Counted from the stretch's first letter, positions 14,286 through 41,687 are shown. The stretch is 64,000 nucleotides of DNA from Leptonemataceae bacterium (GCA_965227295.1 OZ245742.1:736001-800000); one strand, 5' to 3'. Numbers and translations are program-made. The notes: generated by a model not told the origin, from the sequence alone.

Positions 14286-14792
14286 ATGCGCCGCCTTGTT
14301 GAAATACTATGTCCCACGGCCCTGGCCGTGATTGCTTTGCTCACCCCCGGCGCGCTCCTGGCCGAGTCCATCGATCCCGCGGCCCACCAGGCAGCGCTGG
14401 AATTCTTGCAAAACAAAGACGCCGGCATCGTGGACCTCTCGCTCCGCACGGACATCGACACCGAGCTGGACGAGGAGTTCGACGCGGCCTTCGAACAGTA
14501 CCGCAAACTCCGCGCGCTCGTGGACCGCGAGGCCGAAGACGAGCAACGCAAAGAATCGTGGGGCTGGCAGTCGGGGTCTGCGCCGTTCGCGCTCGGTATC
14601 TTCGGTGACTCCGTGCCGTTTGCCATGCCGCCGCCCGCATCCCGGGCGTTCTTAGCTGAATCTCCCTCAAACTTAAGCAACTTTTCTTTCGCGGACGCGC
14701 CTGCGCAGGCCGCGATTCCGCTCCGGCCGGACGTGCCGGATCATCTTCGCAATTATCTGGCGAGGCTCCAGCATGCGGGGCCCGTTCACTAA
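14286..14792 (+). CDS. Hypothetical exported protein upstream of giant toxin gene
   Basis: Signal-peptide-like N-terminus (MRRLVEILCPTALAVIALLTPGALLA); ends 19 nt before the ATG of the giant ORF. Confidence 0.55.
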   Translation: MRRLVEILCPTALAVIALLTPGALLAESIDPAAHQAALEFLQNKDAGIVDLSLRTDIDTELDEEFDAAFEQYRKLRALVDREAEDEQRKESWGWQSGSAPFALGIFGDSVPFAMPPPASRAFLAESPSNLSNFSFADAPAQAAIPLRPDVPDHLRNYLARLQHAGPVH

Positions 14793-14811
14793 CTTTCTAC
14801 GAGTAAACTCT

Positions 14812-17800
14812 ATGAATTTCCGTTTCGCATTCCCTCGATCATTCCTGTCCGTGCGGCGGCGCTACCGGCGCTTCGCCCGCAAATCCAGACTCCACCGTCG
14901 TTCCCTCAGTTCGTTTATGGCGCTGCTCTTTCTCGTGCAGTTCGTCCTGGCACCGACGGGCGTCTTCGCGCAAACATTCGATCGTCTCGATGAGGACGTG
15001 AACAAGAATCGCATCGGCGATTACGCGAACGCCGTCGAGGGCGCGGATGACGAGGATGATTGGAATGAGTTCGTCGGCAGCGGTGCGGATTTGTTGCGCG
15101 CGGAGTGGGAGTATCGCGCGGATCTGTTGCTCGAACAGGAAGTGACTGCCGGCGCGGCTCGGGAAGACCTCGAAGCGGAGAAGGCCCTCGCTCGTGAAGC
15201 CTGGGAAGCGGAACTGGACGACGAGATCGATCAGCGGCGCGGCCGGTGGCGGGCACGCACGGCGGCGCAGTCCCTCGACTCGTTGCTCGATGACATCGAT
15301 TACGACGAACTGGTCGCCGCGGTGAACGATGCGAACGCGCTCATGTTCACCGACGCGGACGATGCGGCGACTCGCGTGGCGGCGTGGGACGCGATTGCCG
15401 GGAATCGCGCGGCGCTTGCGAAGGCGGCGTGGGAATCGCAACTGGACGCGGAGATGGCGGCGCTCCAATCGCAGGGCGCGGGGCTCTCGGCGGAAGAACA
15501 GGCGGCGTTTCTGAGCGAGCTGGAGCGGGTGCGGACGCAGGTCGAGTCCGTTTACAAGGTCGAAGAAAGCGCCGTCGTAACTTCTTCGCGGCGTAAGTTT
15601 GTGACCGAAGCAAACACCGGTGATGACCTCGCGCGTTCCCTCGCGCAAAGCACGGATCCGGCCGAGATCGCGCGCCTGCTCGTTCGGAAAACCGAACTGG
15701 AGATGGAGCGCCTGGGCGTGTTACCGGGCGATGTGCGTTTTGATGGTGTCGATGCGCAACTCATTTTAACCGGCGCGGGGGATTATCAGGACCAGGTCTC
15801 GCAGGCGCTCGAGGCCGGGCAGTCGGCGTGGAAGTCGGCGATCGATGAATTGATTGCGCGCAAGATCGGCTTCGATGAGCAGGTGGCGGCGTCGCGCCAG
15901 GCGGGTGAGAATCAATGGGCGACGGCGTATGCGACGATCTTAGATGCGCGTGAGTCGTGGTTAACGGACGTGGAAGCGCAGATCCAGCGCGGGTTGCAGG
16001 CCTGGGATGCGGCGGAGTCCGAGCTCGCGGAAAACCGGCAGCTTGCGGAGCAAGAACTCGCGCGGCTCATTGAAAACGATCGGCGGGATTTTCAGGAACA
16101 CACGCGCGGCATCGGTCAGCTCGTGAGCGGGGCCTCGTCGACGCTCGCAACGATCGTTGAAAATCAACGCTGGTTTTCGACGAAGATTGCCGACTTACAC
16201 GCGGACATCACGCGTCTTGACGGCGAGTCGCAGAGTTATGCCGGCGGCATTCATCCCATCGGCACGCCGGGCTGGGTGGATCAGTACAACTGGCACCGCG
16301 CGAACTTCACCGACGCCGAGATCAACGATCGTTTCAATCGCATTAATACTTACACCGCCGAGCTCGCGTACTGGAACAGCCTCGAAGGCGAGTACCGGCA
16401 GATCATCGCCGACGCCGAGGGCGTCGTGCACTCCCAGGACATGCGTGACGGCGGCAACGGGCCCGGCTACTTTCACGACGCCGGTACCGGCGGCGACGCC
16501 CTGCTCTTAACCGCCACCGAGTTTGAGTTAAAGCTCGCCCGGGCGCGCCTCGCCGTACTCGAAGAAGAACGCGATCGGGCGCAGGCGGTACTGGACTACG
16601 CCGTGGCGACCACGAAGGACGGGGCCGCGGATATTCAGTCGCAGCTCGCCGCGGCGAAGTCGTCGTATGAGGCCGCGGAAAGTGCCTACTTAACGGAACT
16701 CGCCGCGCTGAACGGCGGTGGTTCGCAGAGTCTGGCGCGGGTGGGTCTGGATGATGAGTCGACGCGCGAAAGCGGGGACGCGGTCGTGGGTGCGACGCTG
16801 CTGGATGATGTGAACGCGCTCGCGTCCGATCTCGAAGCGAAGGCGCGCACGCTGGAACGTTCGCGCACGGCGCTCGATAACGCCCGGGACGCCTACGAAC
16901 AAACGCTCAAGCTGCAGGTCTTAATTCAAAATCCGTCGATGTTAAGTGACATCGGGTTGCTCGCCACGGATTCCTCGGCGATCAACGAGGACGGCGAGAA
17001 CGAGGGCCTGCGCTATGAGATCTTTCGCGCGGAGACGGACTTAACCGAGGCCCGGGAGAAGTTACGCCAGCAGGAGCAGGCGTATCTGCGGCTCATGTAC
17101 GAACGCGAGACGGCGCTGCGTTCGACGGGCTTTTTTAATCAGACCAACGAACGCATCATCTTACACGAACAAACGAAAGACAAACTCGCGCAACTGAGCG
17201 CGGTGCTCGGCGGGGCGGGTTCGTTGAGCGACAAACTCACGGCGCTTTCGAGCGGCTCGCTGCTCGCGGACATTTACGGGAACGCGGCGGCCGATCAGTT
17301 TCGTGATCGCATTGCTGATATTGCGGCGGCGGTGAGTGACGCCGAAGCGCCGGTGGCCACCGAGACCAACGCGCTGAACGGCGGGCTCGCTGAGTTCGGA
17401 ACGGCGCACGGTGCGGTGACATTCGGCGGCGGGGAGCGCGATGCGCTTTCGAACTTTGCGGGCGAGGTGAACCGCATTGTGGACGCGCTGGACGGGATCG
17501 CCGGCGTGGACTGGGGCGGCGGTCTGGATGATTTGCGGACGCTCGGGTCGGCCTTAACTGATTCTGTGGCGTTGTTAGCGTCGCGCGGCGGTGACTACGA
17601 CGCGGCCTATGCGACGTTTGCCGCGGAACTGAGTGATTATGAATCGTATGCGGCGGCGAACGCGGGTGCCGAGGCGTCGGCGGCCTACCAGGCGCGGACG
17701 GCGCGGTTGCTTTCGGCGGCGGATGAGTTTCGTCTGGCGGCGGCGCGTTTCGAGCAGGAGTTCCGGATCGCACAGAGCATGCAACAGCAGGCCGAAATTT

Positions 17801-20800
17801 TGCTCGGGCGTACGCTGGGCAGCGCGCCGATCCTGATTGACGCTTCGATTACCGGCGACGCCCGGTCCGCGGCCCTGCAAACGATCAGCGCGGAGAAGTT
17901 AGCGTTTGATGCGGCGGGGACGTCGGCGTTGGGCGCCATCGAAACCGGGGACGACGGCTTCGCGGCGCTCGCGGAGGCCTTCGGCCAGCACGCGGAGCGG
18001 GTGCAGGTGTATCGCTCGGCCCTCGGCGGGCGGAGCCAGGCGAATCTGGCGGCGGGATCGTTCGTGAACGAGCTGCACGAGACCCTGCGCGGCTCGCTCG
18101 CGAGTCAACGTTCGCAACTGGCCTTTTTATTAGAAGAAAGTGCCGATGAGGCGTTGCTCGATTCGATGCAGGGCGAACTGGAGCGCGGGCAGCGCCTGGA
18201 AGCGGCGGAGATCAATGTGCGCGCGCTGGAGCTGACGGAGGGTTATCTCGCGAGCGGGCGGAGTGTTAACATCTTGCTGATTGAAGTTACGGAGGCTGTG
18301 AACGCCCTTTTGAATGCGTATGACGTCACGGACGGGGCGCAGCGGCGGGAACTCGCGGCTCTACAGGCCGTGGGTCAGTATCTGTCGCAGAACGCCCAGG
18401 GCCTGGCGCTGCTCGATGACGCGGACCGCGCGGAGGTTGTGAGCGGCCTTGCCGATGAGCGCGCCTTTGCCGAAGACCTGCGCGACTGGTTCGCCGCGGA
18501 CGGCTTAATGTCCGATGCGGAGCAGTTAGCGATTCGCACGGGCGGCTCGCCGGTGGAGCGACGGTTGCTCTCGGCGTTTTTTAATCCGGCGGGGCAGATG
18601 GTCTTCGGTCAGGTGGCCTTCGGCGCCGCGCAGGCCGAGGCGATCGTGTTGCAACAGCACGCCGACTTCGCGGCGCAGGTGAACGCGGGCCTCGTGCAGA
18701 GCGCCATGACGGATAGGTATCATGAGGACCAGGAAAACAAGATCACCGGTTTGATCGCCGAGATGAAAGCGGCGGTGCCGGCACTGAATTCGCTCACCGC
18801 TTCGCAATTGTACAACGACAGCGCGCCGGTTTCCCGGGACGGCCTCGCCCACGATACCGACGAAGAGAACGCCCGCAAGGCCGTGCTCGCTTCGCTCCTG
18901 AGTGGCGCGGGCGCGTCGACCGAAGATCGGCTGAATGCGCTCACGGACATGGCTCAGCTCGTGCCGATCTTCGGCGCGGAGGCGGCCGTCTCCGTGTTCG
19001 CGGAGTTGCAGGCGATGCAGGACGCACACTCCGGCGCGGCTGAAGAACTGGCCCGGGCGTCCCGGGCGCTCGTGAACCAGGGCGCGGCCTTTGACGCGGA
19101 AGTGGACGCCCTCTTAGGTGCGTACGGCAAGAAGTCTGCGTACGTAAGTCAGCGGGACGCGTTGCAGGCGGTGCTGGATCTTGCGGATGTGGAAGATGCG
19201 AGCTCGCCGGCCGTTGTGGGCGTGCCCCAGGCGGACGTGGACGCGCATGTGGCTTCGCTCGGCGGCGGGGATGATCCGGCGGTGGATTTTCCGGCAGACT
19301 GGACGCCGGTGGACGACGCCGACGGCGACGCGCCGGGTGACGCGGCCTGGGATCCGACGTACACGCACGAAGACGGCTTTGTGACTCCGTTCGCGGGCCT
19401 TGACTTTGCGAGCGTGACGAACGCACGCAACGACCTCGACGCGGCGCTCGCGGACTGGGACGCGAACGAGGCCACGCTGAGTGCGGCGGTTGCTAACTTT
19501 CGCGCGGCGAAAGCTACGTTCGATGCGGCGGTGCTTGCGAATCCGGCGGGCACGCCGGGCTACGACGCGGCGCTCACGGACTTCGCCGTGGCGGTGAACG
19601 ATATGTACTTTGCGTATCGCGCGCACAACGAGTTTTTCGTGGCGCTGGAGTTCCTGGCGCGGGACGCGGGGGACCAGGCGCGCGGTGTCACGGCGGCGGC
19701 GAAGTCGCTCGCGGGCTTAGATCCGAATCAACAGTTGTTAACGGCGGCGGAGCTGGCGGCGACGCCGACGGAGTTCCAGGACGAGGTGGCGGCGAGCCCG
19801 GCGGCGTACCTCGTGCTCGCGGGCACCGAAGACGCGCACGTGCTGGCGCTGGGCGCGGCGGATTACGCGGCGTTTCAAAGTGCGAACGAAACGCAGTTAG
19901 CAACGGCGGTGCGTGCGAGTGACGAGGGCAGCTTCGCGGGGGCCGCGGCCGGCGTGGGTTTCGCGCGGGAGCGTTATTCGCAGGCGGTCACGGACATGAG
20001 CGCGGCGACGGCCGAGGCGGATGCTTTGATTGCGGCGCTACCGGACCGGGTGGACGTGCGCCTCGATCCGGGCAGCACGGATGAGGTGAGTGCCGCGACC
20101 TTAGTTTCGGTTGTGGATCAGTTACGAATTTTCTTCGCGGAGAAACAGGCGGCCGGGCAAGACGTGAACCCGGCGATTCTGGACGCGCTGGAAGCGGCGG
20201 GCGGCGCCCTCGATGAACTGGAAGCGCTGCGTGATTTTCGCGATCGCGGGGCGAGTGTGAGTGTCGAAGATGCGAAGGCCGAACGCACGGCGGCCGAAGA
20301 AGCCCGCGATGATACGGCCGGGGTCGGCGCGTTGATCGTGGAGTTGCAGCAGTTCATTTCACAGAGCGAAGCGAGCGGCGCGGGCCTGCACGAACAGGGC
20401 GATCGCATTAAGGAGTTGCTTGCGAAGTACGAAGCGGCGCAGGCGGACTTTGCGGCGGTGTACGCGTTCAGTGCGGAGCTGGACGATGCGATGTCGCTGC
20501 TGCGTGATCATGCGTGGGCGCAGCACAAACGCGAGTTGACGCAGGCGTTTCTGGTGCGGCGGGGGGACCTGTCGGTCGATGCGTTTCTTTCTAATATAGA
20601 GCAGGGTCGTTTCGTGAACGTGCCGGGGGCGAACGGCGAATCGATCAGCGTGGATTCGAAGTTTCTCGGCACCGCGCTGGATGCGACGCAGTTAAGTGAA
20701 CTTGAGGCGTTGTTACGGGAGTATGCCGCGCGGGCGCGCGTGGATGATGCCGGCATTGTGGCGGACATCGACGCCCTGCTCGCCCAGGAAGACGCGGCCG

Positions 20801-23800
20801 TGCGGGCCGCCGTGGAACCGGATGCACTAACGTATTCTTACAATAACTTTAACGCGCTGAACACGGCCGGTGTGGGCGACTTTACGGCTCTGCCGGCCGC
20901 ACTCAAAGACTACGGCCTCGTGAGCGCGTATGAAAGCTACACGCAACGCCTGGGGTTGGCCCTGAATGATGCGGATGACCGCGCGACGGGCCTCAGCCGG
21001 TTTCTGGATACGCTGAGTCAGGCGAACCGCGCGGCGGCGGAGCCGGTGTTGCAGGAGTATTTAACGAACTACGACGCGCGCAATCCTTCGTACTATTTGC
21101 CGGCGGATTTGAAAGATCGTTTTGCGCGGGAACGTTATTTCACAAAGCGCTACTCGGATGAACTTACTCCCGGGGATGCCGTGGCGCTGGGTGACTGGCT
21201 CGCGCAGGAGAAATTCGACGCGGGCGTGAGCGGGGCCGTGGAGAGCGCTGTGCGGACGGCCTACGTCCTCGACAACTTCTACGGCGAGGATGCGAACGAG
21301 TACTTAACCGCCATTGATGCGGACTTAAGCGTGCTCACCGGCAGCGGTGTGAGCGCGGAGGAGCGCCAGGCGTTCGTGCTGGGCCTCAGCGGCATGCTCA
21401 GCGCGGCGGGGGATCCGTTCATTGAACCGGACGCGATGCTCGCGGGCACCGTGATCTACGATAACTTTTTGTTCGAAGACAACACGCAGGCCTTGAAAGA
21501 CGCGCTGGATGCGGAGCTTGCGAACTACGCGGGGGTCCAGCGGACAGCGGACGCGGCGGCGACGCGGGCGGGTTTGTTTTTTGATTATAAGTCGGGTGCG
21601 AAGTCCATAAGATCGTACAAATCGTACTTAAACATTGCGCCGACGGGTTTGAGCGAGCCGGATGAGGCGACGCAGATTGCGGGCATGCTCGCGGAACTGG
21701 AGCATCAGGCGGAACATCGTCTGGGGGCGTTCGTGTCGCTCGTGGAGCAGTACTCGAGCTTCGCGTACAACGCGGACCCGGCGTATGCGAACAACCTGAA
21801 CATTCGCGATACCATCGGCGAGATCAACGCGGACTTCGCGCTGCAGGACGGACAGTACGCGCGGGCCGGGGACGGCAGCTACGTGTTCGAGTCCGGCTTA
21901 AATAACACTCAGGTGCGGTTAGACGAATTCGTGAACGCGAACACGGCGGCGTTCACCGCGGCGGATCGTGACGCCTACGCCCAGGTGCAGAAGCAGCAGG
22001 GCGCCATGGATCAGTTGCAGGAGACGATCATCACCGCGGGCCAGGAGGCCGTGCAGGTGAGCTGGATTACGGGTACGTTCGGCTCGGATACGAACGCGTA
22101 TCTGGGGGCGCTGGATCATGCACGCCAGGTGTTCGCGAATCGCGAGGCGGACTTCGACGCGGCGGAAATTGACTACAAAACGGCCGAATCGGCACTGCGC
22201 ACGAAACGCGAGGAGTATCGCGCGCAGCAGGACACGGTGCTCGCGAATTACAACGCACTAAGGGTCGCCGAGGTGGAGTTAGATCGGCTGAGCAGTTTGT
22301 ATGATCAGGCGACGATTGAGGAATACTCGCAGCAGACGGACGCGAACGGCGATACGGAAACGCTGGGGGATCCGGTGGCGGACGCGCAGGTGCGTTTTGA
22401 CGCGGCGCAAGGTGCGTACGAAGCACAGTTAGCGAAGATCGCGGGGCTCGAAGAGAAGCTGGCCCGCCAGGTGACGAAGGCGGAACTCGCCGCGGCGGCG
22501 GAGGTGCAGTTGAATCGGGACGAGACCGAGAAGTGGGCGATGCACGCCATGCGCTTCTCGCGCGCGGAAGAACGCCTGGAGGATAAGATCAATCAGCTGC
22601 ACGCGGACATTGAAGACATTAAGTCGAACATGGAACAGAACTTCGGCGCGCACTTTGATATTTCGATGACGCGCTTCGACGGTTACCGCCAGGAGGTGGC
22701 CGGTTATCTGGACTACGGCAGCAGTGATTATGTGCGCAGTGAGAATCTGCATCGCGATCGCTTTCGGTTGTTGAACGGGCTTGTGACGGGACAGATCGGT
22801 TTTTGGGATCTCGCGTACAGTCAGGCCGGCGGTTATGTGCAGCGGCCGATTTATGAAACGTATACGGACGCGGAGGGCGAAGAGCGCCGGCGGGTGATCG
22901 GTTACACGGACAACGCCGCGTGGAGTACGGGCATTGCAACGAAGAGCGGCGGCGAGTATGATCTGTTCGGTTTCGTGCACGGTTACAACCAGGGTCGCGC
23001 CGGACAAAATGAAACTCTGCGTGAGTTAGCGCAGGATCAGTTCTTATGGTCGTGGGAAGGCGATCTGTGGGCCGGCGCGCGGACGGCGCTGGACACGTCG
23101 AACTTCGACGCGGGCGTGTGGAATAATTATACGACGGGCGTGCTGACGATGGCGGCGATTTTTCTGTACGCCGGGGCGGCGGGGTTGCCGTTCTTGTTTC
23201 AGTTGTACGGGAAGGATCAGGCGTTCATGCAACAGGCGGGTCTCGCCTACGGACGTTTCGCAACGCTCACGGACAGCGCGAATGAGTTAAAGCAGAAGTA
23301 CGCCGAGTTGCACCGGTTGACGGACATAGACACGGTGGATCAACTGCGTGACGTCTTAGATGACGATGAGTTCGGGTTAACGGCCGAAGACCTGGCGCTG
23401 ATCGACGGATCGGGCGGGCTGGGGAACCTGGTGTGGAAGGGCGGCAAAGAGGACCTGGGCTTTAACGAGCTGGTGGGCAGCAACGGCCTGACGATCGCGC
23501 AGCAGAAGGCGATTCATGATGAATACGGTTTCTTCGTGCGCGACGGCACGTTTTCCGCGGGCGCGATAACTGCTACACCGACAGAGACGGATAAGTTCGG
23601 CCGGCGGACGACGCTAATGATCAGCGGGGATGAGTTTACGGATGCGATGGCCGCGATGGCGCAGACGCAGTACGAGATCGAGCGCCAGGAATATTTTCGT
23701 GCGGCCGAGACGATGACGAAGGATCGTGTGCAGGCGGATGATAAAGTTATCTTAGACGAACGGGAAGAATTCTACGCGAATTTACTCACGCAGGCGCAGG

Positions 23801-27945: not shown

Positions 27946-28199
27946 TGGAGTGGGAAAATAAAGGTTGCTATTCATGCCGTCATAGATGGCTTAGCGGAAA
28001 GCCGCCAAAGAAAATTGCGGATAGCCCAACTTATCCGGTCAGCTTGCACCAGTGCAAGGTCTGTGGCTCTCTCTGGGAACAGACAGACCGGTTTGCCGAC
28101 ATCCTTAGTCGAGAAGAAGCTATCAAAGTTTTTGGTCAAATTCCTGAACTTATGGATGAGAACAATGCAGAAGCTGAAGACACTCTCACCGGTGAATAA
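27945..28199 (+). CDS. Putative cognate immunity protein (CxxC...CxxC Zn-ribbon)
   Basis: ATG overlaps the toxin stop (TAATG); MEWENKGCYSC...HQCKVCGSLWE; low GC like the toxin tip. Confidence 0.7.
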   Translation: MEWENKGCYSCRHRWLSGKPPKKIADSPTYPVSLHQCKVCGSLWEQTDRFADILSREEAIKVFGQIPELMDENNAEAEDTLTGE

Positions 28200-28554
28200 A
28201 CTAGAGTTGCAGTTGGCCTCAACACGCCGCGGTGAGACTAAAATGTCCGAATTTCTGACCACTCTCATAAGTGAATCAGTTTTCGTGCCAAGCGGTACTC
28301 CTGTTGAACGAGATCTGGGCGAGTTGCAACCTATTGTGTACGATAGGGCCGGAATTGAAGTCATCGCCGTTTTTTCTAGCTCAGCCGCCGCCGCAACGGC
28401 TTCAGACATGGCACCATTTGGGCTAGAAATAAACACTCGTGAACTCCTGAAGAGTCTCTCACCAAAGACGGGCATAGTCCTAAATCCCGGCTTTGATCTT
28501 GGATTAGAACTACTACCAGATGGGATCCCAAAACTGCTTGAAGACTTCGGGTAG
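28156..28554 (+). CDS. SseB-family-like small protein (possible immunity)
   Basis: FLTTLISESVFVPS...IAVFSS...GIVLNPG pattern typical of the SseB N-terminal domain; start uncertain (28156/28165). Confidence 0.65.
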   Translation: MRTMQKLKTLSPVNKLELQLASTRRGETKMSEFLTTLISESVFVPSGTPVERDLGELQPIVYDRAGIEVIAVFSSSAAAATASDMAPFGLEINTRELLKSLSPKTGIVLNPGFDLGLELLPDGIPKLLEDFG

Positions 28555-28572
28555 TGTTTGGCCTATCCCTGT

Positions 28573-30917
28573 GTCGAGTAGGGTCAGCCCGTCACCGGGC
28601 CAACCCCCTCTAAGAACCGTACGTGCGAGTTTCCCCGCATACGGCTCAAGCAGTTCCCGCCTTACGATTCGCATGAATCTGCTGATGGCAGAAGAGATGT
28701 ACAAGTTGAAGATTCAGGATGTGGCGTTCACCACCCTGCGAGAGCGGAACCTTGTGATGGATGTGCAGCTTTTCGCCGTTCTCCAGATCCGCGGCACAGA
28801 GCGGGCAAAGACCTTTCTGAATCATTGCGAGGGTACGATGATAGGGACGATCCATTTCCTTCACGGCCTTCAGGCGACGTTTTTCCCAGTATGATCTCAA
28901 ATCGGGATCATCGGGCGAAGCGTCACCACGCACCATAATGTGCGGTCGTTTTTTCACCCACGAGAGTTTTCTCAGTAAACGGAGTTTCCCTCGCGATGGA
29001 TCAACGGTCGCGAACACCCAATGGTCAGAGCGTTCCGGATGGTGTCTTCCCCAATAGCGGGCTTTGGTCCAGCGTTTTCCCTTGTTGGAGTGTCGTCGGC
29101 GAGCCCAACGCCAGAGGCGATGCCAGCAGAAGTGATCGACGCGTGCGAACACCTTGCTTGACGCACAGTGACGATAGTAATTTGCCCAGCCAATGAGCAC
29201 GGGATTCAAAGCGTCGATCAGGGCGAGTTGGGGCGCGCCCTGGTATTGCCTGACAAGATCGCGAACGCGATCTCGCAGGCGACGCTCGTTGTCCCGGGAG
29301 GGACGAATGAGAAGTTTCCGACCTTCGCGTGGATTGCGAAACATGGGATTCTTCGTCATTCGTTTCGTTCCCGATGCTTCCACCTGTTGGAGATGGAAAC
29401 CCAGGAATTCGAAACCGTCGCTGGCGTGAACAATCCGGGTTTTAGATTCCGATAATCGCAACCCGCGCCTGGAAAGCCAGTTCCCGAGCAACGGCAGTAA
29501 CGCTTCCGCTTCGCTACGTGATCGGCAGAAGACCAGAAAGTCATCGGCGTAACGCACGAAGCGGTTGTTCGGAACGAACTCCTGCATACCATCGAGGGCG
29601 ATATTGGCGAGCAAAGGAGAGATAACTCCCCCCTGAGGAGTACCGGATTCAGAATCCGAGAACACTTCGTTCTCAACCACTCCCGCCTTGAGCCATTGTT
29701 TGATCAGCTCGTATGCGGGGAATCGGTGAAGTTTGCGAAGCAGGAATTCATGGGAGATGCGGTCAAAGGCGCTTTCAATGTCGGCGTCAATGACCCACGG
29801 TGTGCGCGATGCTCCGCAGACCTGACGGAAGATCGTTTCGATAGCATCGTGAGCACTCCGGCCCGGACGAAATCCGTAGGATCGAGACTCGAATCGAGCT
29901 TCCCATTGAGGTTCCAACGCGTTTTTGACCATGGCCTGCATGGCCCGGTCCTGAATCGTTGGAATTCCCAGGGGTCTTTGTTTGCCGTTCGCTTTCGGGA
30001 TGTAGATTCTTCGTACCGGGGACGCCTTCCAGGGCTCGTGCAGAGCCAGGAAGTCAACCAGCTTTCCCCTCGCGGCCGGTGTCTTCAGGACGAGACCATC
30101 GACACCCGGCGTGAACTTGCCACGATTCTTCTGCGTCACCTGCCGCACGGCAAGCAGCCGATTGGAAAAGCTCCGCAGCATCAGTTTCTGCAGGGAGCGT
30201 ACTTTGCGCACGTTGCCCTGTCTTTCGGCTCTGAATATTCGTTGCCGCAGACGACGTACTTCTTTCATGGCCCTCTGCCAGTCGACAGAGTTCCAGTCCG
30301 TAGCGGACGCGTAATTCTCATCGCACGATGGTACGATGCCAGTCTCCGCATTTTCCTGAGTCGTCATTGCAAGTGTATTCAGTGAACTACCCTGTCGAAG
30401 TGGGCACCCTTTCGAGTTGATCAAAAGATCTATTCGGCCGGTTATGATTTCCCGTTGCCTTTCGGCTGCCGACGTTCGCTTATTCGACAATCCCATACCC
30501 GCTGAGGAGTCCGGCCTTGTTTACACTCAGCTTGCCGGACATCGGTCCGGACCCCAACGGGCTTACCACGTTCCGCAGGTTGAAGATACGACGGGACAGG
30601 CACCCAATATACCCCGGCGGCTGAGGTGGCTGCACCCGTGTGGTAGTATCACGGGTTCTCCTGTGCCGCGTTTCCTGGCATTCACCTCTGATCCAGGCGG
30701 TTTTTTACGAAGGCTTACTCGGGTTCACTTACGTTTGCCATACCGTCTTTTCCGGTTGCCGGATCCAATGGAGGTTCATCGCGTCCGTTGCAACATCCCG
30801 GCAGCTTCGCACAGTCCGTTACCGTTCTGCGCGTGCCGGGCGGAAATGGAGCCAGCCACAGGCTCATCAGGTCAGTGTTCCACCTCCTGAACTTCTTCCA
30901 GCGACTTCGTGTCGCAC
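28573..30917 (-). mobile_element. Group II intron (IIB-like) with RT/maturase-HNH ORF
   Basis: Minus strand begins GTGCGACACG at 30917; domain V GAGCCGTATGCGGGGAAACTCGCACGTACGGTTC at ~28614-28647; domain VI ending CCTACTCGAC at 28573. Confidence 0.93.
28646..30367 (-). CDS. ltrA: Group II intron reverse transcriptase/maturase with C-terminal HNH endonuclease
   Basis: RPLGIPTIQDR, YGFRPGRS, GTPQGGVISPLLANI, RYADD, GWANYY, CPLC...HIHH...NLQLVHLFCHQQIH; start taken at MTTQE. Confidence 0.95.
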   Translation of the reverse strand: MTTQENAETGIVPSCDENYASATDWNSVDWQRAMKEVRRLRQRIFRAERQGNVRKVRSLQKLMLRSFSNRLLAVRQVTQKNRGKFTPGVDGLVLKTPAARGKLVDFLALHEPWKASPVRRIYIPKANGKQRPLGIPTIQDRAMQAMVKNALEPQWEARFESRSYGFRPGRSAHDAIETIFRQVCGASRTPWVIDADIESAFDRISHEFLLRKLHRFPAYELIKQWLKAGVVENEVFSDSESGTPQGGVISPLLANIALDGMQEFVPNNRFVRYADDFLVFCRSRSEAEALLPLLGNWLSRRGLRLSESKTRIVHASDGFEFLGFHLQQVEASGTKRMTKNPMFRNPREGRKLLIRPSRDNERRLRDRVRDLVRQYQGAPQLALIDALNPVLIGWANYYRHCASSKVFARVDHFCWHRLWRWARRRHSNKGKRWTKARYWGRHHPERSDHWVFATVDPSRGKLRLLRKLSWVKKRPHIMVRGDASPDDPDLRSYWEKRRLKAVKEMDRPYHRTLAMIQKGLCPLCAADLENGEKLHIHHKVPLSQGGERHILNLQLVHLFCHQQIHANRKAGTA

Positions 30918-31001
30918 ACTCCTGAATAACCCATCCGAACAACTCCGGTCCGCTCAGAAAAAGGTTTACCATTCCAATCGGTACGTATAATCTAAGCCAC
31001 C

Positions 31002-32012
31002 GTGGCCACTGCTCCAAAAGGCTACCGATCTCTACTTAACGAGATCGGCAAAATTCATTCGCAGGCAACCCAGGCTTCTCGTTCCGAGATGAACCGGGCC
31101 ATTCTCACTGCACGCCTGGAGATTGGCCGCATGATCGTAGAAGCGGAACAGGGCGGCGAAAGCCGGGCCGGTTACGGCACACGACTGATAGAACGACTCG
31201 CCGAAGATCTGAAAACACGTCTCGGCCCGGGCTACAGTGAACGCAATCTCGGCCAGATGCGTAAGTTCTACAACACGTATGACCACTCCAAACTCAACTA
31301 CAACCTTGGCTGGGCGCACTATCGCGAGTTGCTTCGCGTGCAGGATGACCGGGCAAGAGCACGCATTGAAAAGCAAGCCGCGACGAATGGTCTCAGCGTT
31401 CTTGAAGTGATCGCGCTGGTGCAGGCGGAACGCAGCTCAACGCAAGATCGAATTGATGAACTGCTACGACGTCCAAACGGACGACTGTACTCGTACCGTG
31501 TGAAACGCGAACTGGGCGACTACACAACGAGGAAACCGCTGCTGGACCTCGGCTTCTCGACGTACTTGCCGCTACCTGAAAATTCTCCACATGATGCGGC
31601 TGTGATTCACTCCACTCAAACCTCAAAAGGCTATGTTTTTGAAGTCGGCAGCGAAGAAGACCTGTATCTGTATCGCGCTCAGGTTCGGGACGTAATCGAT
31701 GGCGATACCTTACTTGTTTACGTGGACGCCGGGTTCGGTGTGATTTCAAAACAAAAGATACGGCTACGTAATATAGATGCGCCCGAGTTAACGACGGAAC
31801 GCGGGCGGGACGTAAAAGCCGCTACAGAAAAACGCCTGAGAGGTGTTCCCTTCGTATTGATTCGAACAAGAGCGACGGATATGTACGACCGTTATTTGGC
31901 GGACGTAGTGCTGGGTTCAGGCGATAAAAATGTCGATAATATACTGGAAACGGGAGTTCACCTGAATCGCTGGTTGGTGGAGGAAGGTCTCGCCGTAGCA
32001 GTCGGTCGGTGA
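31002..32012 (+). CDS. DUF1016 (YhcG) N-terminal domain fused to staphylococcal-nuclease-like domain
   Basis: EIGRMIVEAEQGG..RAGYG...GYSERNLGQMRKFY...LGWAHY; C-terminal VIDGDT, IRLRNIDAPE, DMYDRYLA, LNRWLVEEGLA. Confidence 0.85.
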   Translation: MATAPKGYRSLLNEIGKIHSQATQASRSEMNRAILTARLEIGRMIVEAEQGGESRAGYGTRLIERLAEDLKTRLGPGYSERNLGQMRKFYNTYDHSKLNYNLGWAHYRELLRVQDDRARARIEKQAATNGLSVLEVIALVQAERSSTQDRIDELLRRPNGRLYSYRVKRELGDYTTRKPLLDLGFSTYLPLPENSPHDAAVIHSTQTSKGYVFEVGSEEDLYLYRAQVRDVIDGDTLLVYVDAGFGVISKQKIRLRNIDAPELTTERGRDVKAATEKRLRGVPFVLIRTRATDMYDRYLADVVLGSGDKNVDNILETGVHLNRWLVEEGLAVAVGR

Positions 32013-32206
32013 TTGTAGTTGCAAACGTAGATTGCGTATTGCATACTTGCTGAAATGTGCTCAACAGGCACGCCGAAATATCTGCTGCAATGGCAGCGTT
32101 TCGGATGAGATCAGAGGATCTTTAACAGGCACGCAGTGATAGTCTGAACGGACTCATTGCGGCGAGATAGGTTGGCAGAGCTTAGTCTCTGCCGAAGCGA
32201 TATGCT

Positions 32207-32232
32207 GAATTCCGCACACGTGTGCGGAATTC
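32207..32232. other. Perfect 26-bp palindrome GAATTCCGCACACGTGTGCGGAATTC
   Basis: Read directly; self-complementary with no loop. Confidence 0.9.
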
Positions 32233-32286
32233 GCGCTCCGGACTACGGGGCCGTTCGGTTCGTTGCAACTAACGTTGGATTCGCGA

Positions 32287-32406
32287 GCGTTAGGGATGCG
32301 GAGGGTCGCGAAGCGAGTCTTCGCGCAGCGAAGACCGAAGCCGAAGGCGGAGCCCGTAGCAGCCCGACGGCCGGCGCCTGGGCCTGGCGCCGGCCGGAAC
32401 GCCCAA
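32287..32406 (+). repeat. Dispersed structured repeat (Flavo-1-like), forward copy
   Basis: GCGTTAGGGATGCGGAGGG...GAGCCCGTAGCAGCCCGAC-hairpin-GAACGCCCAA. Confidence 0.7.
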
Positions 32407-32462
32407 GGGAAAAAATCACGGCTCACATCACAGCCGGCGTTACGTTCCAGGAGCACCAGGGC

Positions 32463-34667
32463 ATGGGTGCATACGCCGGTGCGAATGTCGGCTTCGACGG
32501 CTTTGGACTCAGTGGTGGATTCAGCTATGATCCGGGCAACGGCCTCGGTGTGAATGCGGGCCTGGATCTTGGCGGCGGCAATGGCCGCTCCGGACTCGGC
32601 CTTACGATTTCCGGCAGTCAGCGTGGTGGCACTACGATGGGCCTGTCGTACTCTCGCACGAATGCAACGGGAACGCAGAGTGGCAGCCTGGGTATCTTTC
32701 ACAATAACTTAGCGGGAGTGGGACTTAACGCGAGCGTGACCGGTTACGGACGTCAGTACGGGGACGGTTCGCGCTTTGGCGCGACGAGCGGATTGACGCA
32801 CTGGATAGAATCGGGCGCGACTTCGGCGGACATCGGCCTGCTTTACAAACCGCCGGAACTGGTGGGCGAAGCGAGCAATCCAGGCGATCCCGTGGACACT
32901 CCGCGCGAGAAGGGCCTTCTCGATATTCTGCTTGCGAGCAGTGAAGCCACACGGCGGCGCATGGAAGGCGCGTGGAACAATCTTTTCGGCAGCGGTGCTC
33001 AAACCAGTGCGACGGGTCTTGCTTCGAGTAGCGCCGCCGCTGCCGCTGCAGATGCGGTGGCCGCGGATCAGAAGAAAAACATTACGCAAAACGACGCCAC
33101 GGACTGGTTGTTCGCAGCATTGCAGGCGAGTGGTCTGATTGAAGGCACAAACGCGGAGCGCGAAGCGATCGGCGAGATGATGTACAAAGATGCGAACGAC
33201 AAAGGTTTCGTGTCCGCCGCGGATATGCAACAGGTGTTGCTCGATGCGAACGGCGGCGACCCGCTGAATATTCCGGAAGGCGCTCTCGAAGCGGCTTACG
33301 TTGCAGAGATGCAACGTTACGAGGGTGTGCTCAAAGCGCGTCGCGAGAAGTTCGACGGCCTGTCGCAGAAGCTCTTCGGCATGAGCATCGATGAACTGCA
33401 ATCCGCGCAGCCGGGTGACTTTGCCGGCGAGACGTTGCTTGTGCGTGATGTGTTGATCCAGCAGGGCGTGGGTGCGTATGATTCAATGGCCGGCACGAAT
33501 CACAGTGCGAACTTGCAGAACGCTTATAACCAGGCGGGTTTGATCGGTTATGATCGCGTAACGACGCAGGCGTATAACTCGGCCGCGGCCGGGTTGAGCA
33601 ATAGCGCGAGCAATGCGTATCAGTTCTTTGCGGACAACGGTCTGGATTCCGTGCCGCTGCTGCACGCAATGGCCGCACGGGGCGCCGGCGAGTTCGCTTA
33701 CAATGCCGGTTCACAGATGGTAACTGATACTCAGAAGTACTTTGCGAATATGGGCACGGCCTACAGCGGCATGAGCGGCTGGCAGGCCGCCACCTCAACA
33801 GTAGCCGGCGTGAACCAGTGGGCTTACAATACGTCCATGGAAATGGTCATCGCCGGTATGACCGGTGTGTTTATGCCGCTTACGTTGATGGGTCTGAAGA
33901 TGGGCAACGTGAACTTCTTCGATGCGATGGGCGGCCGTGATGCCTTCAAGCGGGACTTCGTGGGACCGATGTCCGCGGAACAGGATGCGTACTGGAATAC
34001 GTGGAGCGACGGTACGGATGCGGCGACGGAGTTCGGCGCGGATCTGTTCGCCGGTGGCGGTGGTGTTGCGAAGAGTGGGGGGAAGAATGCGCTCAGTCGG
34101 ATTGTGAATCGGGTTTCGTCGCAGGCGAAAGGCATGTTCCGTTCCTCTGGCTGGAATAAAGCAGTCGCAGATCTTGCAGATGATATCTGGGACGCAGGAC
34201 GACTATCGGGAATCGATGGGCGGCCTGTTAGAGATGTCGGCGCCCACCCACTAGCTGGATGGACACCACAACAAATTGTGGCCCATGTGAAGGCTCTAGG
34301 ACTCAAAATTCCGCGTGATTCAACAGTTCTGTGGTCTGGTCTGGGCCGAGGCGGCGTTGCTCGATCGCAGGCATATGCGAAAGCCAACGGTGGCATGACT
34401 TTAGAAATGACTCCCGGAGGCCAGTGGCTTGACAGCATGGATCTCTTTGGAAAAAACTCGCCAATGACACCAGCCGAAGCAATCAAAGTTTGGGCCGAGG
34501 TCTCTCGCTCAATGGCTAATCAAGCCAGCGGTCATGTGAGAGCGGTGCTGGGGAGTATCCGACCAACCAGCGTTTATCGCAATATTGAGCTCCCGGAACT
34601 GGCAGCGAATCCCAATGTTATCGGCATAGAGGAAATTTTTCTTAAGCCTAAAATAGGATTAAAATAG
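32463..34667 (+). CDS. Orphan polymorphic toxin C-terminal module with ADP-ribosyl-cyclase-like (Tox-ARC) tip
   Basis: Starts in Gly-rich repeats resembling the giant protein; tip has LWSG...TLEMT...W...S..MA..ASG.V...S....IELPEL; AGGAG at 32449 precedes ATG 32463; homology begins ~32415. Confidence 0.75.
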
Positions 34668-34682
34668 CAGCGAGGTTTGAAC

Positions 34683-34973
34683 ATGTTCAAGCGACTTAAT
34701 AATCAAGGAGTACGGAGTGAGAGAGGATTCATTGTTCAAGTTAAAGATCGCTTCACAGTCGAATACAGTGAAGGATCGCGCAGGATGGATATAGAGGTTG
34801 AATTCGGCATTTTGGCAAACGGCAATCCTTGTGTGAACATCGATCGCTCTGCCACGTCCAGATGGAACGGACACAGCACGGACATACCAATAAGTGAACA
34901 AGATCGAATCAGGGAGAATTTTATAGATGCAATGAAGTACATGGATCTAACAACCGTAGTCTATGGTAACTGA
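34683..34973 (+). CDS. Putative immunity protein, Imm74-like
   Basis: Directly follows the ARC-like tip with GAGG RBS; VEYSEG...I....RW......I...EQDRIRENFIDAM pattern. Confidence 0.65.
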   Translation: MFKRLNNQGVRSERGFIVQVKDRFTVEYSEGSRRMDIEVEFGILANGNPCVNIDRSATSRWNGHSTDIPISEQDRIRENFIDAMKYMDLTTVVYGN

Positions 34974-35149
34974 AACGAAAATCAAGCACATTTGCCTGTC
35001 TATGACTCGCCAGACAAGCCTTTCGCTCTCTGCAAACATTCGCTTAACTTCCCCGCCAAGGAGAATCTTACAGTAGTTTTGGAATTTTAGTATATTACTA
35101 TTGTTTAATACGAAAATTGACTCGCTACCCTTTCATTGAATCAAACCTG

Positions 35150-35533
35150 CTACTCGTTTCCACAATCCAGCCTCTTCTCCAGAACAACGAACGCTTCCGC
35201 CTGATGCAAATTTTCAAAGATCCAACCAAGCAGTGACTCCAAATCAAGCTTATCGGGGCCTGAATGCCGCCCGTGATTGCCTTGCGAAACGTAAAGGCCG
35301 TCACCACGTTTCGTGACAAAGCAATACAGACCGGCTTCGTCAACGAACGTACTACCTGATCGAAACTTGAAGAAACTCAGTTCCCAGCCAGAGGGCATGC
35401 ATTGGAGCACAGTCCGGACTGCTTCCCTTGTAAGGCTCGCCGGCAGTAGATGAATTCGTTCAACGCTCTCATAGTGCCTTACGTGGGGTAGAGCGGACTC
35501 AGGTATCCACTCAGGCAATGCGGTGCGCTCCAT
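35150..35533 (-). CDS. Hypothetical protein (low-GC island)
   Basis: ORF from MERTALPEW; GNHG motif; no family recognised. Confidence 0.45.
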   Translation of the reverse strand: MERTALPEWIPESALPHVRHYESVERIHLLPASLTREAVRTVLQCMPSGWELSFFKFRSGSTFVDEAGLYCFVTKRGDGLYVSQGNHGRHSGPDKLDLESLLGWIFENLHQAEAFVVLEKRLDCGNE

Positions 35534-35747
35534 TCTATTTTTAGTAAGGATGAAACCATCAAAGCGCAAGTAAGTTATTGAAGACTGGCTGCAAACTCGT
35601 GCAATACTCTTCTCGCACGCACCCGGCGGCAGACCACCAACAGGAGGACAAACAACGCCAAAAACCGCCATCCGCAGGACATATCCTGCCTGCGAATTCC
35701 ACAAAATCACTGGCGCCCTTAACGGTAGTCCTGATTCCATTCATCGA

Positions 35748-36026
35748 ATGCCCTTTGGAAGCCGGATTACATACCACAACTCCAGTCGGCCAGTGCAAAC
35801 CGGCGATCGCGTGCGTATCAGGCGCCGCCTGCTACCGGATTTATTTTGCGAAGTCACGCATGTATATGATCCCGGCCTGCCATCGTTAATGAAAGGCGAA
35901 AATGAATTCGGCTTTACGCTCAAGCTACCGAACGGCACATACAGATGGTATGGATCTCAGCCTCCGAAAGAAGTGATTCTTATGGAAAAGCCCGGCTTAT
36001 TCGCCTCCAATCGAGCATCGCCATAA
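35748..36026 (+). CDS. Hypothetical small protein
   Basis: 92-aa ORF with VQTGDRV beta-type start; low-GC context. Confidence 0.5.
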   Translation: MPFGSRITYHNSSRPVQTGDRVRIRRRLLPDLFCEVTHVYDPGLPSLMKGENEFGFTLKLPNGTYRWYGSQPPKEVILMEKPGLFASNRASP

Positions 36027-36052
36027 TTGATCCTTCGTACTGATCGTAAGAA

Positions 36053-36385
36053 ATGCAATCTTCCGAGAATCCTCAGAATCTCACTCCGCAACTCGCCACC
36101 CTTCGCGCCCATCTTGTATTCATCCGAAGTATAATGATAACGGAATCCGAAACGAACTGGATTCCGGGCATTGAAACACTTCTCGGAGAGATCGATGCAG
36201 TCGGTGTTGAGCTCACCGATAAAGAGGCGCTCAATAATTTAAAAGATACTTACGCTGCAATGACCCGTGGAAAAGAGAGTTTCGCGGAATTCTTTCTCTG
36301 GAGCGAGGACTTTGAGGAACGCAAGGCACTGAATGAAGTCCTGGAGTATCATGTGGGCTATCTCAATCGAATACTCAAAAGGTGA
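36053..36385 (+). CDS. Hypothetical small helical protein (possible orphan immunity)
   Basis: ETNW...YAAM..GKESFAEFFLW....ERKALN pattern; TGA overlaps next GTG. Confidence 0.6.
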   Translation: MQSSENPQNLTPQLATLRAHLVFIRSIMITESETNWIPGIETLLGEIDAVGVELTDKEALNNLKDTYAAMTRGKESFAEFFLWSEDFEERKALNEVLEYHVGYLNRILKR

Positions 36386-36822
36386 CGCCTTTGCTGCAAT
36401 CTCAAGGGTCCCCTCCCCCTCCCATCACCCGCTCCGGTCGCATCCTTGTCTCGCCCGGATTCACCATCGGCCCGGAACTCACGCGCACACTCTTCCTGCA
36501 AGTCATGCCCCAGGCTGAACCTTTCGTGATCAACGGCAAGCATCACAGTTACAAGATCGAACTACGATGGCAGCAACCGTATATCGGCGTCCTGTTCTTC
36601 ACGGAAGAGAAGCTGAAGTTCATCACGCTCGGTCCGGACCTGGCGGACGAAGAACTGAGCTACGAATCTGCCATGCGCGAACGCGCCATCAATGATCGCA
36701 TGCTGAACGAGTGGTTCGGCAAACGCAACTGGCATCGCTCGCGTCGATATCGCTGGGGACGCATCGTCTCGTCCTTCGACCCCCGCAGCCTCCAATCATC
36801 CATCATCCTCACGTACCGCTAA
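36382..36822 (+). CDS. Hypothetical protein (possible orphan immunity)
   Basis: Coupled start (GTGA); C-terminal YRWGRIVSSFDPRS..SSIILTY. Confidence 0.6.
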   Translation: MTPLLQSQGSPPPPITRSGRILVSPGFTIGPELTRTLFLQVMPQAEPFVINGKHHSYKIELRWQQPYIGVLFFTEEKLKFITLGPDLADEELSYESAMRERAINDRMLNEWFGKRNWHRSRRYRWGRIVSSFDPRSLQSSIILTYR

Positions 36823-40270: not shown

Positions 40271-40343
40271 AATCGTGGCGTTGAGTTACGCGGCGTTTGC
40301 CGTGAAAAACATAAAGTACGTCGCGGAATAGTTAAGGGGTTTG

Positions 40344-40524
40344 TATGGTTACGGCACCTGGAGAGTTGCGGTGAGTCGTTTTGCAAAGAATGTTGGCTTC
40401 GGCCCGGAACGCTGGTTGTGCAACTCAGCGACTGTAAGATGACAGTGACTCCCAAACGTTCCGGGCCGAAGAAACCGTTCGCCACCCCATAACATTCCGC
40501 AACTCTCCAGGTGCCGTACCCATA
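40344..40524. mobile_element. MITE-like element / long nested hairpin
   Basis: 28-bp terminal inverted repeats (40344-40371 vs 40497-40524, 1 mismatch, TA at both ends) plus an inner perfect 15-bp inverted repeat (40397-40411 vs 40457-40471). Confidence 0.55.
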
Positions 40525-40597
40525 AAAGTCCTGATTTACATTGGCCGCAACTTATCCCACGATTCGGGGCGGCCGTGAAAGAAACGAAAGATCAGCC

Positions 40598-41524: not shown

Positions 41525-41584
41525 GACGGGGCGTGGTTCGTGAGAGCTGAAAAGCCCGTGCAGGTTCGGAGACAGGATTTAGTC

Positions 41585-41687
41585 GGGCGCGTCGGCGCTT
41601 CGCGCCGACCGGGCTCCTCCGGGCTCCGCTATCGCTTCGGTCGCGCTACGCGCGACGGCCTTCGGCCCCCTCCGCATCCCTCGCGCG
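41585..41687 (-). repeat. Dispersed structured repeat (Flavo-1-like), reverse copy
   Basis: Shares GGGCGCGTCGGCGCTTCGCGCCGACCGGGCT and CATCCCTCGCGCG with 2711-2825. Confidence 0.7.

Follow-up and report, generated by a model that had tools for sequence, protein, structure and literature searches.

We analysed a 64,000-nt stretch of DNA from a Leptonemataceae bacterium (GCA_965227295.1, OZ245742.1:736001–800000), referred to here as the window, in which a single open reading frame (ORF) encodes a giant protein with a putative toxin at its C-terminal end. The giant gene is followed by two partner genes and, further downstream, by a second, 5′-truncated module with a small gene of its own. Comparison of these sequences with paralogues in the same genome and with relatives elsewhere identifies the locus as a real polymorphic toxin system, built on a carrier family that is absent from Pfam and NCBIfam. 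The toxin gene, its parts and the genes coupled to it are, in window coordinates:

14433–14772, plus strand: candidate promoter and leader, upstream DNA common to paralogue B (blastn, 96.4% identity from 14433)
14773–27945, plus strand: giant polymorphic toxin gene, a single ORF of 4,390 codons
14773–14973, plus strand: Sec-type signal, with an Arg-rich N-region, a hydrophobic core at residues 48–66 and the end VFA/QT (sequence; hydrophobicity peak 2.11)
14974–24519, plus strand: acidic Ala-rich body, residues 68–3249 (composition, hydrophobicity, full-length homology)
24520–25152, plus strand: conserved α/β domain, residues ~3250–3460, with C3399 and C3408 (model, alignment)
25447–25620, plus strand: hydrophobic and small-residue helices, residues 3559–3616, immediately before the Gly-rich block (hydrophobicity, model positions 306–367)
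25621–26058, plus strand: Gly-rich block, residues 3617–3762, modelled as 12 β-strands (VIA-align, Foldseek; model predicted local distance difference test score, pLDDT, 33–60)
26248–26295, plus strand: junction motif WEKAGNWASGSGYQTN, W3826–N3841, the constant/variable boundary (alignment, blast)
26296–27414, plus strand: variable middle region, residues 3842–4214, with a Gly-zipper-like hydrophobic helix at 4097–4115 (search, hydrophobic peak)
27415–27945, plus strand: toxin tip, residues ~4215–4390 (~176 aa), of low guanine-cytosine (GC) content and isoelectric point (pI) 9.2, with a predicted ADP-ribosyltransferase (ART)/NADase-like fold (relatives, AlphaFold model)
27921–28199, plus strand: 92-aa four-Cys zinc-ribbon protein, immunity candidate (synteny; start overlaps the toxin stop by 25 nt)
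~28156–28554, plus strand: SseB-like protein of ~130 aa, second immunity or accessory candidate (Pfam SseB, E 2.2e-9)
32407–34667, plus strand: orphan module A_o1, with a partial Gly-rich block, a degenerate junction and a different tip (ORF from 32157, similarity from ~32430)
34677–34973, plus strand: 98-aa ORF of GC 0.43, with its ATG at 34683 after GAGG (position, composition)

The giant has a pI of 4.45 and a mass of ~474 kDa. Its sole two cysteines, C3399 and C3408, both fall within the conserved α/β domain. The gene is present in three paralogous copies in the genome. It matches no Pfam or NCBIfam family at E ≤ 0.01; RHS, HINT and FHA content, looked for at the same threshold, is rejected, and a PDB sequence search with the giant returned nothing meaningful. 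Met14 (window 14812), which gives a protein of 4,377 aa, is the probable true start because the ORF of paralogue B begins at the equivalent codon. No sigma-70-like promoter was found upstream of the gene. Acidic residues (D+E) make up 14–19% of each 300-aa block through residue 3600, and glycine accounts for 20.3% of residues 3601–3900. Hydrophobic helices lie at residues 2787–2812 (window 23131–23208), 3559–3580 and 4097–4115. The GC content falls to 0.478 at 27500–27999, compared with 0.55–0.69 upstream, and the drop coincides with the tip domain. In a model of residues 3250–3860, the α/β domain reaches a pLDDT of 70–86 (model residues 1–125 and 170–210). Its cysteine pair is kept in 10 of the 12 alignment rows that cover the domain and is absent from those of two relatives, G008 and G027; a search of the ESM Atlas with this domain gave no usable lead (scores ≤ 0.88).

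The initial annotation, made from the window alone, had described a ~4380-aa protein with a signal peptide, more than 3000 aa of acidic helical sequence, hydrophobic helices, Gly-rich repeats, an abrupt GC drop near its end and no RHS, FHA or HINT domain. The signal peptide, the acidic body, three helices, the glycine content and the GC drop are now located as given above, and the absence of those three domain types in the giant stands, although one relative (G027) does carry PT-HINT (E 1.7e-21; PF07591 is absent from the window's giant). The description is accurate in these respects; its left edge at 14286 precedes the ORF.

The 5.94 Mb genome, assembled in one contig, holds three giants: that of the window (A), paralogue B (5013499–5026467, minus strand, 4,322 aa) and paralogue C (2349543–2362256, plus strand, 4,237 aa). 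A and B are 98% identical in protein over A residues 2–3855 and divergent beyond; their DNA is 96.4% identical from window position 14433 to 26310 (codon 3846), after which no similarity is detectable. A and C share 63% protein identity, and the similarity stops at A residue 3841. By blast, similarity to A stops at this same residue in five paralogous modules (the giant C itself and four orphan cassettes), and in the alignment the conserved motif WExAGNWxSGxGYxTN immediately precedes the divergence. A regular expression for the junction motif matches six times in the genome, always within the giant family. Since the motif and the similarity both end at residue 3841, the variable part measures ~549 aa from residue 3842. 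It is thus larger than the last ~175 aa to which the variable tip had originally been confined, although a low-GC tip does lie there. The variable middle region found almost no matching stretches among 1.84 billion representative proteins. A hydrophobic helix occurs in the variable C-terminus of A, of A_o1 and, weakly, of B among the seven modules scored, and was rejected as a general trait of variable C-termini.

The same switch is found outside this genome. Two species of the sister family (G032 and G035) have giants that are 88.9% identical until ~290 aa before their ends and then unrelated, and four orphans of G035 cease matching at the same point, after NGWNAIKxALFGGG. The comparison of C-termini among homologues that the initial annotation had proposed therefore finds ends that vary. 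A constant N-terminal and central region that gives way abruptly to a variable C-terminus, both among paralogues and among relatives, is the arrangement of a polymorphic toxin system sensu Zhang et al. 2012 (PMC3482391). The A/B pair records one C-terminus that has already been swapped through homologous recombination in the constant part. In G035, the interval 1496–1550 kb (L042–L044) contains at least four orphan modules, several of which are followed by MORN-repeat proteins that are likely immunity proteins.

Downstream of each giant of our genome lie 5′-truncated copies of its 3′ part, as is characteristic of the orphan cassettes of polymorphic toxins: A_o1 in the window, and B_o1, B_o2 and C_o1–C_o4 elsewhere. 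Their similarity to A begins at residues 2763, 3175, 3248, 3442, 3541 or 3644. After each cassette comes a small ORF whose GC content is 0.43–0.47, compared with ~0.60 for the genome. Together, the paralogues and the truncated cassettes are the source of alternative C-termini. When 23 proteins of loci B and C were scanned with Pfam, known toxin and immunity families emerged: the C-terminus of giant C matches Ntox30 (E 1.4e-25) and is followed by a gene for a HEAT repeat protein, and B_o2, with a weak, below-cut-off match to Gln_amidase in its tip (E 0.0094), precedes an Imm35 gene (31.4 bits, cut-off 27.5). The gene after C_o2 encodes a WD40 protein.

Within the window, A_o1 aligns with A through the Gly-rich block and the junction and then ends in a different tip. 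The similarity is weak (26% identity, E 1.8e-4 over A 3644–3777), which qualifies the earlier description of it as a second homologous module. Its last ~140 aa have ten relatives at 46–64% identity, none with a Pfam domain and one labelled filamentous hemagglutinin by its source; in the ESM Atlas this tip falls among unnamed clusters, with MafB and TNT at 0.80–0.82. The 98-aa ORF at 34677–34973 has no Pfam or NCBIfam match and, by position and composition, is likely the immunity candidate of A_o1. PADLOC returned no match in the toxin or the small genes.

The tip of A belongs, on sequence evidence, to a widespread and unnamed family of C-terminal toxin domains found in many phyla. No Pfam or NCBIfam model matches the tip itself, and a PDB sequence search with its profile gave nothing meaningful. 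A search of the representative-protein database with residues 3846–4390 retrieved 189 relatives at E ≤ 1e-3, 148 at ≤ 1e-10 and 39 at ≤ 1e-30. The best stretches fall nearly all within query positions 294–545, most of them starting near 370 and one at 239. In the hits listed, the matching stretch is C-terminal or nearly so; the proteins retrieved range from 93 to 4,092 aa. When 32 of these relatives were scanned with Pfam, eight carried RHS, four WXG100_2, one DUF6861 and one TNT with Ntox15 and Gln_amidase; two had weak, below-cut-off matches only and 16 had no family at all. In two of the RHS proteins, the tip sits after the RHS-associated core. A C-terminal domain common to other delivery scaffolds, here RHS and WXG100, is a further mark of polymorphic toxins. 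The RHS/YD toxins thus share with the giant a tip family and the same logic of toxin, immunity gene and orphan cassettes, whereas the giant has neither an RHS repeat nor an RHS-associated core.

The AlphaFold model of the tip, built with a 45-sequence alignment, has a mean pLDDT of 90.7. Foldseek found no match to it at E ≤ 0.001. An exhaustive VIA-align search placed NAD+-using ART-fold proteins on top, led by SPN NADase with Z 7.2 and a root-mean-square deviation (rmsd) of 3.7 over 126 aligned residues, along with Tpt1 (Z 6.5), TreX (6.5), Scabin (6.0), EcPltA (6.0) and Tne2 (5.8). In a second fold comparison, all 15 rows at Z ≥ 4.2 are ART-fold enzymes, and the following row drops to Z 2.1. 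We therefore read the modelled tip as an ART-fold, NAD+-using toxin, either a transferase or an NADase. The polar residues conserved in the family (D52, D101, H107, T114, N157, R160 and E161) are all present in the window's tip. Among the 45 sequences, D52 is kept in 44, D101 and T114 in 43 each, E161 in 40 and H107 in 39. From conservation alone, H107, T114 and E161 (H4306, T4313 and E4360 in the full-length protein) are catalytic candidates. The toxin–immunity pairs SPN–IFS, Tne2–Tni2 and TreX–TriX resemble the window in the modelled fold of the tip (Z 7.2, 5.8 and 6.5) and in having the immunity gene adjacent, the window's own being candidates. Sequence identity between the tip and ART-fold toxins is just 8–13%, and the window differs from them in pairing a zinc ribbon and an SseB-like protein with a tip that carries an extra ~30-aa insertion relative to its family.

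The association of the tip with its two partners extends beyond this genome. The initial annotation had noted one small gene coupled to the tip, which corresponds to the zinc-ribbon gene at 27921–28199 and its 25-nt overlap with the end of the giant gene; the SseB-like gene is a second protective-gene candidate. A scan with the tip alignment, restricted to a single genome for each species, gave 16 foreign loci, from Gammaproteobacteria, a Sphingomonas, a Desulfatitalea, Actinomycetota, Pirellulaceae and a Pyrinomonadaceae metagenome-assembled genome. A zinc-ribbon homologue directly follows the tip in 11 of the 16 (E 5e-21 to 1.5e-4), with one more borderline case (E 0.046), and an SseB-like homologue stands third in the cassette in 11 of the 16 (E 1e-25 to 6e-7). 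At one locus (L048) the two are fused in one ORF. In eight foreign loci the start of the small gene overlaps the toxin stop by 25–28 nt, like in the window. Two loci have neither partner, and another ends 44 nt past the toxin and is not judgeable. In the zinc-ribbon alignment, C16, C19, C45 and C48 (CxxC...CxxC) and W52 are invariant. This is strong comparative evidence that the tip, the zinc ribbon and the SseB-like protein form a three-gene unit.

The carrier has its own distribution. The first 3,000 residues of the giant match, along their full length and at 27–35% identity, giants of 4,210–4,582 aa in four genomes of the sister family of the same order, and fragments in one genome of the same family, so that all five genomes tested gave a match. 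A profile of residues 3250–3860 hits 17 of 41 related genomes, and residues 2700–3480 found matches at E ≤ 1e-5 in 53 genomes of a phylum-wide sample of 401. With the latter region, 16 of the 20 sister-family hits are strong (E 1e-64 to 1e-131) and four are weak (E ~1e-7). Hits in other families are weaker (E 1e-6 to 1e-20), in frames mostly of 2,600–3,900 aa. Five distant giants were inspected individually. All four that retain an N-terminus have a signal-like one, and four match both A ~137–557 and A ~3020–3260, the fifth (G302) matching the former region alone. A junction-like motif is found in two of the five. Their ends match Peptidase_M23 (E 1.7e-18), Peptidase_C39_2 (E 3.8e-14) and, weakly, NlpC/P60 (E 0.0032), with one end giving no match. 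Distant giants of 3,200–3,900 aa were seen in other families of the phylum at L068 (G217), L069 (G302), L067 (G394) and L070 (G087). A word-indexed protein search with residues 3250–3860 and 2830–3480 returned the two paralogues of the same genome alone, a result limited by the method that says nothing on rarity, and a pattern scan of genome contigs with one alignment (A1) gave 51 pattern matches, none of which was confirmed.

A link to the Leptospira Lepto_longest family (TIGR04388) had been suggested for the giant. The profile search rejects membership: at E ≤ 0.01, with a family threshold of 45 bits, none of the three giant genes matches. The same model has 25 matches in the genome, in 14 open frames of 1,142–2,652 aa, and it is through these other proteins that the suggested link survives in part. 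They are large, signal-bearing products of the same genome and order, and some share the Gly-rich module of the giant (in one, 37% identity over A 3588–3762), although they are much shorter than the ~4,300-aa giants. Examples lie at G000 5075051, 5124007, 22128 and 512704, and several stand in arrays with orphans. The Leptospira name of this model, together with the distribution of the giant in its order and phylum, would fit the spirochaete origin proposed in the initial annotation. A full-text literature search found no paper mentioning Lepto_longest or TIGR04388.

Between the two modules of the window, and beyond the second, lie further elements:

~28570–30919, minus strand: group II intron, with a reverse transcriptase (RT)/maturase/HNH ORF at 28646–30496 (TIGR04416, Rfam)
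31002–32012, plus strand: DUF1016_N and staphylococcal-nuclease (SNase) protein (Pfam; PADLOC PDC-S02, E 2.9e-32)
32008–32406, plus strand: junction element of ~400 nt, from the SNase stop codon to orphan A_o1 (7 copies)
35150–35740, minus strand, and 35748–36026, 36053–36385 and 36382–36822, plus strand: four small ORFs, GC 0.47–0.58

The initial annotation was silent on the intron and on the nuclease gene. The intron scores 361.9 bits with TIGR04416 (cut-off 300), and RF00029 (Intron_gpII) matches 28573–28649 with 65.5 bits (cut-off 40). It is inserted 16 nt past the SseB-like gene and begins with a 5′ GTGTG motif. A copy that is 99.9% identical adjoins another Gly-rich fragment (G000 40063–42428). 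In two DNA runs of one study, contig depth over the intron is ~2× that of its flanks; the contigs of those runs break at the repeat borders and none spans the intron. A second group II intron, which lacks HNH (RT and maturase, 471 aa), lies at L017 ~5840–7690 (G000 2367840–2369690). Its GTGTG start comes right after the hairpin, resembling a repetitive extragenic palindromic (REP) sequence, of a junction element, and it runs into orphan C_o2, a placement that resembles that of hairpin-targeting introns. The PDC-S02 family matched by the DUF1016_N–SNase protein is a PADLOC candidate defence family. A 3′ fragment of this gene also precedes orphan B_o2, and relatives with the SNase domain lie on either side of another toxin locus (G000 ~20.5 kb and ~31.7 kb).

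The junction element occurs in seven copies of 81–91% identity, six of which directly adjoin an orphan where its 5′ side is truncated; the seventh is separated from orphan C_o2 by the second intron. It contains a perfect 26-nt palindrome (window 32207–32232). At ≤ 3 mismatches the genome contains this palindrome nine times, always beside toxin arrays and twice by those of the TIGR04388 type, and it precedes orphans of the TIGR04388 type and of the giant type alike; in 40 related genomes it has no site. The other sites are at G000 2362779, 2367439, 2377204, 2381104, 523399 and 529793 and, on the minus strand, 5008300 and 2286034. The 3′ part of the element (32286–32406) is a REP-like repeat, rich in GC, that occurs more than 100 times in the genome, and B_o1 has this part alone. 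A test for conserved RNA structure (2 of 83 pairs compensatory, covariation −0.24) is uninformative because the copies are too similar. The element might serve as a homology arm or bind a protein, or it might be one end of a mobile element.

The further small low-GC ORFs reported earlier are present as the four listed at 35150–36822. They have no Pfam, NCBIfam or PADLOC match and no second copy in the genome. Directly past them, at window 36865–37680, lies a gene for a protein with a VWA7_N/Het-C-like domain (271 aa, E 2.5e-9). Elsewhere in the window are an IS4/5-type transposase (43792–44469), CRISPR arrays with a 61-nt period (~44340–46130 and ~47760–50150), which flank Cas1 and lie beside an HD-Cas3 gene, and cas genes at 46489–47367 and 50487–53477.

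The structural model that bears on delivery is that of residues 3250–3860, folded with a 14-sequence alignment to a mean pLDDT of 47.8; together with the tip, it makes up the segment-wise structure prediction that had been proposed for the giant. Three helices precede the Gly-rich block, which is modelled as 12 β-strands. VIA-align matches the modelled block to outer-membrane barrels of 12 strands, namely KdgM (Z 14.2, rmsd 2.7, 137 residues aligned) and the β-domains of BrkA (Z 13.9, rmsd 2.2, 140), AIDA-I (Z 13.8, rmsd 2.2, 140) and NalP (Z 12.3, rmsd 2.4, 143). In all, 31 chains reach Z ≥ 8, against a typical best Z of 7–8 for the tool. With the same model, Foldseek finds a designed transmembrane barrel (E 7.9e-5), the invasin β-domain (2.3e-4) and KdgM (8.2e-4). 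If this modelled fold is right, it suggests CdiA-like or type-V-like delivery. Like type Va and Ve autotransporters, whose β-domains (BrkA, AIDA-I, EstA, Hbp, NalP and invasin) fill the best fold rows, the giant has a Sec signal and, by prediction, a 12-stranded barrel immediately preceded by a helix of small residues. It differs from them in that its putative barrel is internal, with ~3,600 aa before and ~630 aa after, has no sequence-family match and is modelled with low confidence.

The likeness to CdiA lies in the order of parts. CdiA is also a very large exported protein with a long stalk, a β-rich block, a short Asn-ending motif and a two-part variable C-terminus, followed by an immunity gene and orphan cassettes, so that its succession of FHA-1 filament, FHA-2, pretoxin-VENN and CdiA-CT has a counterpart in the stalk, β block, Asn motif and two-part end of the giant. 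A CdiA study reports that FHA-2 associates with the outer membrane of the target and that the last Asn of VENN cyclises, releasing the toxin (PMC13625785). The giant differs from CdiA in having no two-partner secretion domain or FHA repeats (no Pfam match) and no CdiB-like neighbour (the neighbours are housekeeping genes), in a stalk that appears α-helical and acidic instead of a β-helix, in a motif that reads GYxTN and not VENN, and in two conserved downstream genes instead of one.

These elements can be assembled into a sequence of steps. The giant would leave the cytoplasm via Sec, its acidic helical body would form a long stalk, and the Gly-rich block would enter an outer membrane as a 12-stranded β-barrel or sheet. 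That membrane could belong to the producer (in cis, in a type-V-like manner) or to the target, as has been suggested for CdiA FHA-2. The C-terminus may then be released at junction residue Asn3841, by analogy with the cyclisation of the VENN Asn in CdiA; the variable middle region may aid entry of the toxin into the target; and the tip may consume NAD+ or ADP-ribosylate its target, while the zinc-ribbon and SseB-like proteins would protect the producer. We propose Sec export, stalk, block insertion and release at Asn3841 from this parallel with CdiA, which holds only if the block is a true barrel.

Several observations weigh against parts of this scheme. Both fold searches depend on one model, whose pLDDT in the Gly-rich block is 33–60; a search of 14 members of the giant family for autotransporter or outer-membrane-protein families comes up empty even at E ≤ 10; the crude β-periodicity of the block, 0.197, gives no signal next to a protein mean of 0.210; and the strands contain many Gly, Ser and Thr residues in place of hydrophobic ones. 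The helices at 2787–2812 and 3559–3580 could be inner-membrane stop-transfer anchors, in which case a simple export through Sec would be less straightforward. No secretion-partner gene was found near the giant, whose neighbours encode an NAD-glutamate dehydrogenase, glycosyl hydrolases and transferases. At the junction, the final residue is N in six aligned copies, D in one and S in one; orphan C_o1 fails to align there, and the G008 relative has D. The fold Z-scores of the tip, at 5–7, are middling by the tool's own scale, and the cell-wall hydrolase ends of distant relatives also fit a non-competitive role.

With these points set against the comparative evidence, we consider the locus to be probably a polymorphic toxin system, most likely for bacterial competition, on a giant undescribed carrier whose export and release would follow steps such as those above. 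The standard polymorphic-toxin layout, which the initial annotation had recognised, is borne out by a shared body with abrupt end differences, by Ntox30 and Imm35 in sister cassettes, by the tip on RHS and WXG100 proteins and by partner genes that travel with it. The more specific proposal, of a self-contained delivery machine of a hitherto undescribed kind, in which an internal 12-stranded barrel between the ~3,600-aa helical stalk and the toxin inserts into an outer membrane of producer or target and lets the C-terminus through, with the Asn motif as release point, is a possible one that we put forward tentatively. The weaknesses of the barrel model listed above, and the distant relatives that keep a junction-like motif without an obvious repeat block, would also fit a polymorphic toxin whose barrel is an artefact. 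Its Gly-rich block would then be a flexible or β-solenoid linker, and release, as for a large bacteriocin, would be to the medium or in vesicles after proteolysis near the junction, without a membrane conduit encoded by the protein itself. That version seems doubtful to us in view of fold matches of Z 12–14 with rmsd 2.2–2.7 over 137–143 residues, well above the usual best Z of 7–8, and of 12 strands in which aromatics alternate, in a block conserved across the order.

The target and the very nature of the system can also be read differently. Eukaryotic cells are also among the targets of ART-fold and NADase toxins, and the top fold rows of the tip include SPN and pertussis-like toxins. PT8, a polymorphic toxin domain specific to Leptospiraceae, is reported to harm fungi in a preprint (bioRxiv 10.1101/2021.10.19.465003). 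A toxin aimed at eukaryotes, whether grazers or a host, with downstream genes that shield the producer before export, is nevertheless unlikely: relatives of the tip stand on RHS and WXG100/LXG-like carriers beside immunity-like genes, the usual layout of bacterial competition, and the Ntox30 and Imm35 of the sister cassettes point to bacteria. Less probable still is a housekeeping envelope protein of the phylum, with a C-terminal enzyme that works on the cell's own envelope and ends that vary by drift. The Peptidase_M23 and Peptidase_C39_2 ends of distant relatives and the lack of dedicated secretion genes nearby would suit such a protein; drift sits poorly with DNA that passes abruptly from 96% identity to no similarity and with unrelated tips that each have a low-GC small gene. 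The tip, besides, is common to RHS proteins of other phyla, and Ntox30 and Imm35 occur in the sister cassettes.

The preferred reading, a polymorphic toxin system for bacterial competition, has precedents in the group, which include the large PT-HINT protein LA_3725, described in PMC4751964, PT8 and the spirochaete entries in the tables of PMC3482391. The locus adds a new carrier scaffold and a new ART-like toxin family, with a two-gene partner set, a defined junction motif and a barrel hypothesis. Polymorphic toxins are well known on RHS and CdiA carriers and on those of the type VI and type VII secretion systems; in the window, this logic appears on a carrier of ~470 kDa without a known secretion, repeat or release domain. 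It offers as entry points a short junction motif as a candidate release site, a candidate built-in barrel and an ART-like family with an unusual pair of partners. Given the relatives in other genera of the order, the system could explain competition in bacteria that lack the usual contact-killing systems. If the delivery proposal is true, the phylum would have its own CdiA-like route of contact killing that needs no partner transporter, in a lineage where a specific palindromic element marks the joins of spare cassettes.

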